Below are positions 40,974 to 44,794 of a stretch of DNA of 64,000 nucleotides, piece by piece. This DNA is from Amoebophrya sp. A120 (taxonomy: Eukaryota > Protista > Dinoflagellata), in assembly GCA_905178155.1 (NCBI GenBank), contig CAJINV010000003.1, forward strand, positions 7,921,882 through 7,985,881, written 5' to 3'. Position 1 is the first letter of the stretch. Every line of letters begins with the position of its first letter. The translations under genes and the position numbers were made by a program. Below the pieces are notes generated by a model. That model saw only the letters and a list, made by a program, of their open reading frames with translations, had not been told where the DNA came from and did not search any database.

Positions 40974-43900
40974 TTAGTTGAGTGGCTTGGCCTCGAATTG
41001 CAACTCCGTGTTCTTCTTGGCATTTGCCTTATCCGGAAATTCCAGCGTGAATTCTTTTGCACCAAAAAGTATGTTGTCGACTGCTTCTACACCTTGCAAG
41101 CAGGTGTGGTCCTGATTGCCGATTTCGTACTTCCACGCGCCAAATCTTCCTCGGCTCCAGATTTTCCCACAGAAAAAAGCTAGAAGGATACATGTACAAT
41201 GCACGAACCAAGGTTCGTCATACGATACCCCATGCACAACGAGGTAGCCCCTCTTCTGTGAGTCTCTAAGTCCAACTCCAGTTTCTTTTATGTCATTATT
41301 GCATTACAAATGCGGCATGCTAGACTTTTTCTGTGTGATAAAGATGTCCTTTTTGCGAAGCTCCGGCAAGATTTTCTGGATACATGTGTCCCGGTCTACG
41401 TGCGGAGTTGGGTATCCCTTCTCGAGCCTTACAGAGGTTTGTCGTTTTTTGAAACCGCCTTTAGGCGCACCTCTACGAAAATAAAGGGCTCAACTCATTT
41501 TATCGGATAAAATGAAAAACAAAAACAACATCCACAAAGGGGAGATGAGTAAAGTACTTCGCTGCGAAGAAAGCCGGAATGCAGAAAACAGCAAAGTTAC
41601 CTCCTGCGGCATCGACTGCAAATACGCCGGGGTGGAGTAAATAAAAGGATGTTCAAAAACAGCACGTTCCGCCAACGTTGCAGTACATGTCAAACAGAAC
41701 CTTTGGGAGCGGTACAAATCCCATGCATAGGTACCTACCTGAGCCGTGGCCCTAATTATCGGCGCCACAAAAAAACTGCCTTCTTGCAGGCCGGCACGAA
41801 AGAAACCAACGTAAATCATGATGTAGATGTTCTACTTTGTGGCGCTACAAAAAAGCATTAAAAGTATGATGCCAGACTCTCCCCAAGACTAACCCCGACG
41901 CGTTTGCAGTACATACGTGGTAGATGGAGACAATTTCGTCGGTTGACTGGACCATTTTGGTGTTTATGGCACCTTGAATGGTGTCCTCGACGACCTTCTG
42001 CAAATCCACTGGTTTGTGGGCAGCGCTCTCGCTGATCTCGAACATAAGGGACCAGTAGGGGCCGGCGCGCGACTCGCCCGCGTCGGCGGGCACGGTGCCG
42101 TCACAGAGCCGCAAGGTCGGAAGTTTCTTGTCGTCCGGCGGGCAGTTGTTTTTTGCGTAGAAGCTGAATACCGTGCACCGATAGAAGGGACAGTTATCCT
42201 CCGGGTAGTAGAGCCAACATTTCACGTCGTGTGGAGAGACTCCCCGGAGTCCGATACCGACCACGTGCGTGGAGGAGTAGTGCTATCCTGAGTAAAAACG
42301 TACCCACACCAGAGTCAAGATGGAAAATCTGCTAGACAAATCGGCCAACTTTGCTTGTTTCGCATGACAAATTTGGACGCGTAGTGTAGTGCTGTTTGAG
42401 CTAGTTCAGCAGCATTACAGATCTAGTCTCTCATGCTGATTGGAGCATGACAAATTTCAAAACACCCTTAGAAAGTGCTTCTCATGGGGCTCCGCATGAC
42501 AAACATTTTAAGCATGCAGATTTGCATGACAACTATGGTGTGGGTACGTTTTTACTCAGGATAAGTGCAACTTTTTCCCCTCTGGGTACTCGACCCCGGC
42601 CCACTTCGCCGTCTCGTCTAGTGGCAGCGTCGTCAGGAGCTTGTTATACTGCACCACGCCGCCTTCGCCCGTCTCCGTCGTCTGTTTTCAGTTTTTTCAC
42701 GAATTCAACAAACAAACAGCGGTGCTGTCAGAAGCTTCTTGTCGAAGCTGTGAAATAAACAGACTGACCTGGTGCAAGGAGCATCGTGCCACAACAGTAC
42801 GCACTCTGGTCGACTAATAGTGGAGGTCATGGAAGAAGCTAGTCGTTAAGTAGCACATATTACGCGGCTCATCAGGACAAGGAAAAAAACGATGTGTTTT
42901 TGTCAGTTGTACACCGTCCTCTCCGAGCTGCCGCCAATGCGCACACTTCTGCTCCGTGTCAATCTTTACTATCCGCCGAAAGTACTTCTGCTTGTCTTTT
43001 GGTATCAGAGCCCCGACCTTCTTCCATATTCCGCCCGTGCCTCCCTCCCTTGGGAAGCGGAACACCGCGTTGGGTCCCCAGCCGGCGTCTGGTTGGTTCT
43101 TGATCACGTTAGCGATCACCTTTTTGGATGATGTGACTACTCTTTAGGTCCTGAGCATTAATATCTTCGAGGGTCCAATGCGGAACAAGCCACTACCGCT
43201 CCAAATAAGATACCGCAGCAGCATATGATAGTAGTCATCGTGATTGGAGTTGCAGGTTGCGGTAGTCCACCGAGACCACAGTATTCCTTGATAATAGCAA
43301 CGGGTGTTTTGTTAACAAGAAAGTAAAACTCAAACCTTTTTCGCATCCACGGTGGCCACTCGCTCTCCCAGCCACTGGCAGCTCATCTCTTTCGTTGGAT
43401 ACGCCCAAACTTTGAAGTTGTAGGGTCTCATAAACAAATCGGCAATGCCGTTGCCCATCACTTTCAGGATCCACTCATCAAAATTTCCGGGTGCGGCTGT
43501 GACCTGCAGTTGTTGCAGTAAAATTGTCTGCTCCGAAACACCCTTCATGGTGAATTCAATCTGTTCGACTCACCTAAGGAGCCTTCGAAAACTTAATCAG
43601 AAAAATGCAGACATGGCACAGCAACATGCGTCCTTGTTTTCCCCACTAGAAAGCTAAGTACCTTTGCTGCATCCAAAACGCCGTTGATGCATTCAATTTT
43701 GTCGTTCTGGTCCAGCATGTAGAGGTTGTTCTGGAACGGCTAGAATCCACTGAAAAGGGGTCACGGAGTCCGCAGGGGAAGAAAACACATCCACATGAAG
43801 ACAAAACTAAAAGTGGAAACGTAACAGATCCGGACTCACGATTCGTACTCATGCACGTGGTAACGTGAATCTTCCCTCACCAACCCACGTCGACTGAAAG

Positions 43901-44794
43901 TCGATCAGTTGCACTGGATAGATAAGGCACCCACCTGTCACGGATCCAGACGTAGGATACCCGCTGGTGCGTGTTCCAGTGCTCGTCTCCCGTTCCAACT
44001 GCTGTGTCGAGGAGTTGGTCGAAATAGTTCCAGTGGGAAAAGATCACGTGGCCACCCATGTCAAATAGGAAGCCCTCCTTCGTGACGTCCGTCATGGCCA
44101 GTCCGCCTGCCTCCTTGCAATCTGTATCGTGGTGAAAAATGAATCCACCCCCAGAGACGGAATGCGTTCGTATTGCTACAAGAGACTTCGCCACCGAAAG
44201 CGAAATCGCAGTCGCTGAGGGTCAACGCAACGCGGGAGCACCTGACCGACACTCGCATGGCACAGGGCCAGCATCTACAGCTATGTATTGCTCGCCGATC
44301 TCGGTCGGTCAATCACGACGGAGGTGTTCGTGTTGCGAAAGCTCTCCGTTGTGTATGTAAACAGACTGCGCTACCAGACCGAAAGCCACAGAGAGTCCAT
44401 GAGCTGCACGGAACATCCGAGCAGTACGGGAAGGTCCACGCAGCAGAAACATTCCCCATCATACAAGCATATACCAGCACCACAAATTTTCATCCCTGTG
44501 GCATAGCAAAAGTTTGCGTTGCAAAAAGGCCCAGCTATCGCAGAATTTGCGACGTCAGCGACGGTGCTCGCAACGCCTAACCTTAGGATCGCAGACACTT
44601 CTGGTTCTTTCGTGCAAGACAAACACTGTCCATTCCGAAACTTCTGGGGGAGTGGGCCACTTTCCATTGTGATAATCTGCATATAGTGCCCAGTTCTTAT
44701 GCCCCAGCTGATGCAGCCGCGTGGCCGCTCCCAGCCCGCACGGGCCCGCCCCAAGAATAAGCACATCAACCGAGGAATCGCTCGCGGCGGCCAT
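40974..44794 (-). CDS. glf: UDP-galactopyranose mutase, eukaryotic type
   Basis: [87 protein letters not shown] and [18 protein letters not shown] occur in order, as in fungal and trypanosomatid UGM. Confidence 0.93.
41163..41340. mobile_element. TIR introner in UGM
   Basis: TSD CAGAT/AAGAT. Left TTTCCCACAGAAAAAAGCTAG; right reverse complement TATCACACAGAAAAAGTCTAG. Removal joins [10 protein letters not shown]. Confidence 0.88.
42284..42563 (+). mobile_element. TIR introner, family A (280 bp), in UGM
   Basis: Perfect 28-bp TIR and TSD AGTGC. About 4 substitutions versus 38327-38606. Removal joins KKLH|YSSTHV. Confidence 0.96.
43744..43920. mobile_element. TIR introner in UGM, older copy
   Basis: Left AATCCACTGAAA; right reverse complement TATCCAGTGCAA. 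TSD GCTAG/GATAA. Removal joins WVPY|PFQNN. Confidence 0.8.
44125..44674. mobile_element. TIR introner in UGM (550 bp, largest found)
   Basis: Perfect TSD ATCTG. Left TATCGTGGTGAAAAATG; right reverse complement TATCACAATGGAAAGTG. Removal joins [14 protein letters not shown]. Confidence 0.82.

Follow-up and report, generated by a model that had tools for sequence, protein, structure and literature searches.

A fixed 1/4 splice register in the inverted-repeat introns of Amoebophrya sp. A120 and the bases from which it may be set

How is an intron without GT or AG at its ends removed to the exact base, and from what are its two cuts measured? The question is raised by the 64,000-nucleotide stretch of Amoebophrya sp. 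A120 analysed here (the window; contig CAJINV010000003.1, positions 7,921,882 to 7,985,881), one exon of which is 100% identical to the deposited protein P0122 of this organism. The window holds many elements of 115-550 bp that start with TAT, finish with ATA and are flanked by 5-bp repeats. Their terminal inverted repeat (TIR), TAT followed by seven variable bases and AAA, is that of the introner elements described from the same organism, which they match (Farhat et al., 2021, PMC7789003). The covered parts of that paper also describe a short border repeat and, as here, repeated families without a terminal dinucleotide signature. They give repeats of 3-5 nt, splice sites that vary relative to the hairpin and an unknown border (legend of Figure 3), whereas here the repeat measures 5 bp, a single 1/4 register applies and one-sided fixation affects two bases. 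About 65% of the 66,565 RNA-supported A120 introns are non-canonical, with borders and mechanism left open in the parts covered (PMC7789003). The elements are thus already known; the fixed register and the one-sided need for U+2 and A-7 appear to be the new part.

The elements and their host genes

Among 441 elements that were called without using the flanking repeat, all five repeat bases match in 327 and four of five in 71; on shuffled controls, for which half of the loci were shuffled, the caller made no calls. The elements are multi-copy, with a 99% identical pair inside the window and 70 loci that share the same end. The two copies of this pair (38327-38606 and 42284-42563) lie 4 kb apart in different genes and a further copy is found in another assembly (L010:7998-8281), which indicates recent movement of the family. 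Two families adjoin at 38327-38913 and again at L026:55-620, and the intervening sequence is unrelated between the two places.

The best-defined host gene encodes a UDP-galactopyranose mutase, identified by PDB matches with E values of 7e-20 and 8e-22 (Table 1). Its spliced protein is 79% identical to an Amoebophrya A25 protein, the best relative. When the gene was spliced at each register from 0 to 5, only 4|1 (four bases of the exon from the upstream repeat copy and the fifth from the downstream copy) yielded together the Y of PYPFQNN, the W of IWSRG and the second R of HRR, the last present in 114 of 117 aligned homologs.

Table 1. Coordinates of the host gene, TIR introns and microexons in the window.
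Feature	Position	Strand	Remarks
UDP-galactopyranose mutase host gene	40974..44794	-	508 aa from first Met; 5 TIR introns and 4 GT-AG introns
TIR intron (element 43744-43920)	43740..43921	-	ends CT..AG; contig joint permits 4|1 or 5|0
TIR intron (element 41163-41340)	41159..41341	-	ends TT..CT; 5|0 excluded
TIR intron absent from the initial annotation	41606..41916	-	ends GT..GC; 4|1 or 3|2
5-nt microexon	41601..41605	-	between TIR intron 41606-41916 and GT-AG intron 41428-41600
TIR intron	42280..42564	-	perfect 5-bp repeat, register uninformative; 99% identical to 38327-38606
TIR intron	44121..44675	-	perfect repeat, register uninformative
TIR element (40058-40343)	40054..40344	-	borders placed by the 1/4 rule
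TIR intron (element 32263-32485)	32259..32486	-	ends GT..TC; 4|1 or 3|2
TIR intron, 42284 family in opposite orientation, also spliced	32498..32782	-	contig joint
TIR introns 31580-31789, 31918-32038, 32829-32982, 32993-33252	within 31580..33252	-	contig joints; 10- and 11-nt microexons
TIR introns 47169-47468, 47645-47808	within 47169..47808	-	contig joints
TIR intron, unambiguous 1/4	51042..51265	-	ends GT..TT
TIR intron, unambiguous 1/4	53109..53326	-	repeat fully decayed (0/5); ends GT..AT
TIR intron, unambiguous 1/4	54324..54632	-	repeat fully decayed (0/5); ends CT..CG
TIR introns 50296-50609, 51323-51536, 51842-52078, 52160-52314, 53717-53997	within 50296..53997	-	contig joints
8-nt microexon	51834..51841	-	contig joint
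TIR intron	63283..63459	+	ends GT..AC; deposited protein W-D-D needs 4|1 (annotation)
TIR intron	63505..63849	+	ends CT..AG; deposited protein Q-E-Q needs 4|1 (annotation)

The splice register

The initial annotation had written the intron as N-TAT...ATA-NNNN, and this form fits all 21 listed joints of assembled transcript contigs (1 nt before TAT, 4 nt after ATA). On the same joints 3|2 fits 14, 5|0 fits 13 and the other registers nine at most; with a random register from 0 to 5 per intron, the chance that all 21 fit 4|1 is 2e-7. While 12 of the 21 joints are compatible with three or more registers, those at elements 51046-51264, 53113-53325 and 54328-54631 permit 1 nt/4 nt only, and at the latter two the joint falls exactly there with no direct-repeat base surviving. 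Three further joints were predicted in advance and all three were found as predicted. The removed length is always that of the element plus five bases, and therefore the exon is restored.

The joints were taken from 30 listed rows (15 of 18 and 15 of 20) and one pair of pieces, which yielded 12 GT-AG introns and the 21 element introns; in four rows the joint spans a microexon of 5-11 nt. One row duplicated another, and a joint at 32860-32937, inside an element and with 22 letters on its short side, was dropped. The contigs stem from runs of a single study that were guessed to be RNA, with one contig per joint and run and with X3 and X4 representing one sample; as contigs lose rare isoforms, minor other registers could escape detection. 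From the raw RNA runs X8-X10 just 4, 3 and 29 reads map, chiefly on repeated element ends. A leave-one-out profile of the ends has its maxima at offsets 1 and 4 for all 23 TIR introns, its training ends having been placed by the same rule. All 21 contig joints belong to minus-strand genes; two elements of a plus-strand gene must be removed with these offsets to give the deposited protein P0121, so that the register appears to follow the direction of transcription, on the strength of annotation rather than directly observed joints.

Protein conservation had first suggested this register at four elements (43744-43920, 41163-41340, 32263-32485 and 40058-40343), all of which were recovered in place. 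At 43744-43920, where the minus-strand copies of the repeat read TTATC and CTAGC, the assignment of base 4 to the upstream copy is borne out: registers 0-3 produce a stop and 4-5 the motif PYPFQNN, whose Y is found in 77 of 78 aligned homologs (42 of 120 being gapped). The assignment of base 5 to the downstream copy at 41163-41340 (copies ATCTT and ATCTG) also holds, as 5|0 gives ILSRG and every other register IWSRG, with the W in 115 of 116 aligned homologs; the transcript joint 41158/41342 rules out 5|0, and with it ILSRG at 41.2 kb. The AWQG expected at 32263-32485 is encoded by the contig through an 11-nt microexon, and AWEG recurs later in the same protein. For 40058-40343 the argument from an avoided stop stands on translation and sets a register of at least 1, register 0 alone making the stop; no joint is among those listed there, and P0122 begins after the element. 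Taken singly the four cases leave 4|1 unfixed and they fix it only jointly, if one register is assumed, an assumption that the three unambiguous joints make unnecessary.

Outside the window, a coding-model test of the register pointed the same way with little power: the predicted repeat copy fitted better in 58 of 99 mismatches (p=0.054), with position 2 running opposite (9 vs 13). Stops at registers 0-5 in 65 outside elements numbered 1, 2, 1, 0, 0 and 1. Under 4|1 the phase of 232 framed elements (L001-L070) was 0 in 107, 1 in 62 and 2 in 63, a distribution to which the frame caller may contribute.

Two side observations concern the contigs themselves. Across intron 47169-47468, which has little predicted end pairing, run X1 has two contigs at 47140-47496, one spliced at depth 50 and the other unspliced at depth 11, the latter representing retention, pre-mRNA or DNA. 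The microexons 41601-41605, 51834-51841, 32983-32992 and 32487-32497 (5, 8, 10 and 11 nt) are all retained in contigs, which points to intron-by-intron definition.

Terminal bases and one-sided conservation

The claim that the ends are not read as GT/AG agrees with the joints, none of which can be slid to GT-AG and one of 21 to GC-AG. In 23 TIR introns the first base is C in 8, G in 7, T in 6 and A in 2, and the last is C in 10, G in 8, T in 4 and A in 1; AG ends occur in three, T is second in all, and the U2-type combination of a GT or GC start and an AG end does not describe them. Four of the seven that start with GT leave unused an AG whose end lies no more than three bases from the actual site, namely two bases downstream in 41606-41916 and three bases upstream and in frame in 32259-32486 (both seen in contigs), three bases upstream and in frame in 53109-53326, and two bases upstream in 63283-63459. 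Among 323 outside elements neither G at +1 (103; flank G 30%) nor terminal AG (28; flank 7%) shows enrichment, so that a trend to spliceosomal ends is not seen, and 254 perfect repeats have G at position 5 in 76 and AG at 3-4 in 23, no excess over the flanks. An apparent drift to G at +1 (4 of 8 mismatches in the window, 9 of 21 outside) was too small to use. At +2, +3 and +4 the bases T, A and Y are found in 23, 22 and 23 of the 23 TIR introns and in 13, 12 and 12 of 13 canonical introns of the window.

The two ends of the inverted repeat are not equally conserved. In the window T+2 and A-7 are invariant in 23 of 23 introns and their mirror partners are altered 4 and 3 times. As this pattern was noticed after the fact, it was retested on independent elements outside. 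The 70 loci with the same end (598 kb) gave 423 elements, of which 358 were oriented by a coding model, not cDNA, and 65 remained unoriented; after removal of 4 without flank, 22 with fewer than three repeat matches and 9 near-duplicates, 323 from 57 other loci were kept. The strand caller was wrong on 4 of 29 window elements, once at a margin above 5, at which margin neighbours agree in 135 of 140 cases. In this set T+2 was held in 323 of 323 elements against 9 departures at its partner -5 (p=0.004), and A-7 in 322 of 323 against 14 departures at +4, 13 of them to C (p=0.001). This change to C breaks the pair and keeps the Y of the organism's own GTAT/GTAC donors.

A strand mutation bias does not explain the pattern, because the two asymmetries run in opposite directions; under stricter orientation their direction is unchanged and the counts are smaller. 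Some TAC arms belong to one family, and in part the asymmetry thus reflects filtering of insertions by their orientation and not mutations acquired later. Under either origin A-7 is required on the 3' side. The fixity of U+2 and A-7 while their partners drift makes it likely that two bases are read and serve as origin of the ruler, one within a donor-like N-U-A-Y and the other as a candidate branch adenosine. The bases ahead of A-7 lack a branch consensus (T at -9 in 119 of 332; commonest context CAGGA), and in canonical introns A stands at -7 in just 8 of 13. As a separate observation, conservation seems stronger in the T tract of the 3' arm at -15 to -17 than in the A tract of the 5' arm (8 vs 1 at -15; p=0.04, uncorrected), possibly a third signal.

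Candidate machinery and related systems

On balance it is probable, though far from assured, that the fixed 1/4 register is set by a relaxed spliceosome, which would be the cutting machinery and would read U+2, within the donor-like N-U-A-Y, and A-7 as the predicted branch adenosine. Insertion creates the 5-bp duplication, and both this duplication and the removal of the element plus five bases that restores the exon are observed. The palindromic end would supply both signals in either orientation, and one family is indeed spliced in both. A spliceosome without detectable U1 would use N-U-A-Y as its donor and branch at A-7, making the first cut one base before U+2, as at the organism's own GTAT/GTAC donors, and the second six bases past A-7, with no scanning for AG; the hairpin would at most aid the pairing of the ends. 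G+1 and G-1 touch each other in the spliceosomal active site, and their joint loss is plausible because of this contact. A fixed branch position at -8 has been reported in Entamoeba invadens. In the covered parts of PMC7789003, A120 has nearly all spliceosomal proteins and U2, U4, U5 and U6, with no U1 found, and its nine commonest non-canonical ends all have T second. Table S4 of that paper lists NT-NN ends in A120 and TT-NN in A25, whose repeats start with TTA, the borders being placed by the aligner; T as second base fits a read base in both. An Rfam scan of the window gave no matches and no snRNA. Against the relaxed-spliceosome reading stand predicted stems that would bury both signals, the weak branch context and the absence of drift to GT or AG.

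The initial annotation had taken the RNA stem as the reference point of the splice sites, irrespective of sequence, and in this wording the one-sided conservation of U+2 and A-7 does not support it. That the distances of 1 and 4 bases are counted from the foot of the hairpin, by an endonuclease-ligase or an altered spliceosome, is considered unlikely, although the offsets are fixed, predicted end-to-end pairing is strong (median 17 pairs vs 0.8 in 13 canonical introns, p=1e-5; at least five pairs in 20 of 23 TIR introns) and the Euglena spacer beside a paired motif is length-critical. Transposition alone predicts inverted ends, and three of the 23 introns have fewer than five predicted end pairs. 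At 51046 and 53113 no terminal pairs are predicted, and the register is nonetheless exact. Selection for a stem on the transcribed strand should favour G-U over A-C, and the counts (28 vs 25 in the window, 133 vs 147 outside) do not, which leaves a stem ruler unsupported as worded. Likewise, the sense strand pairs better in 10 and worse in 11 of the 23 introns, and at the third pair the stem-breaking C-A occurs 13 times and the wobble-keeping U-G (A-7 to G) once. The stem may still help to bring the intron ends together.

A non-spliceosomal machinery that reads the terminal motif by sequence, such as a transposon-end-binding protein, and cuts at fixed distances would account for the base specificity at U+2 and A-7, for the T tract at -15, for the unused AG and for the poor branch consensus, with GT-AG introns coexisting in the same transcripts. 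It too is judged improbable: the factor is hypothetical, the match of +2 to +4 to the organism's own donors would be coincidence, and motif binding alone gives no reason for arm-specific bases. The joints might also be artefacts of reverse-transcriptase template switching, for which a hairpin with a direct repeat is the usual setting, of assembly error or of element-free DNA alleles, and that the runs represent RNA is a guess. This is very improbable given the exact 1/4 joints without any repeat base at 53113 and 54328 and a conserved 508-aa mutase that needs the elements removed. In addition, contigs without elements are also without GT-AG introns, and the DNA-like run X5 has no joint at 15 listed places and is unbroken over 46000-60634 with no listed difference.

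If the relaxed-spliceosome reading is extended, the A120 spliceosome may have lost its need for G+1 and for the 3' AG alike and set its second cut six bases after the branch adenosine, so that TAT/ATA ends encode donor and branch point and almost any exon insertion, whichever way it faces, is spliced out perfectly as an intron; this is put forward tentatively, as a real possibility short of probable. If true, it would add a third splicing code to those of U2 and U12 and account for tens of thousands of intron gains. The fixed register with its two required bases provides a testable code for A120 non-canonical introns that names a candidate branch point, predicts the coding copy of each duplicated base and permits correct gene models, and shows a route by which any exon can take up a transposon harmlessly with neither GT nor AG.

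Among working analogues the spacer rule of the nonconventional introns of Euglena, an unrelated lineage, comes closest, and the A120 code parallels it. As described in the covered passages of Nomura et al. (2025, PMC12501133), these introns are also non-GT-AG, with paired ends, fixed spacers beside the border motif and GT-AG neighbours. Their motif is CAG/CTG with spacers of 3 and 5-6 and a purine at the exon start, whereas here it is TAT/ATA with spacers of 1 and 4 and a purine in just 8 of 23; the euglenid pattern N3-CDG...CHG-N5-6 followed by purine does not describe the TIR introns. Micromonas-type introners are likewise short non-autonomous DNA transposons that splice inside the duplication and restore the exon, but according to the covered passages (PMC11282704) they carry GT/GC and take AG from the duplication, and here neither G+1 nor AG is enriched. 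The introns of Fritillaria borealis (10.1101/2025.08.15.670264) and hemistasiid diplonemids (PMC12621601) are mostly non-GT-AG with transposon-like or paired ends and a spliceosome present; the abstracts and review passages covered state no fixed 1/4 rule for either, and Fritillaria differs from the A120 elements in its preferred AG-AC and AG-AT ends and duplicated U2AF. Neither a fixed register nor a need for U+2 or A-7 was stated in the results of a full-text literature search or in passages of PMC12130899, PMC11282704, PMC11453091 and PMC12005148, figures, bioRxiv supplements, theses and subscription papers lying beyond the scope of the search.

Some minor features of the window may be added. 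The GT-AG introns 52457-52658 and 63027-63192 have about 10 predicted end-to-end pairs each and are perhaps old elements or chance. A gene at 31100-33300 (minus strand) has six element introns; its product of about 250 aa is small, cysteine-rich and membrane-like and contains an internal repeat. Up to 60 kb (1-60100) the genes examined all lie on the minus strand, and the strand switches before 62300-64000, across a G-run and an A+T-rich stretch at 60.6-61.7 kb.
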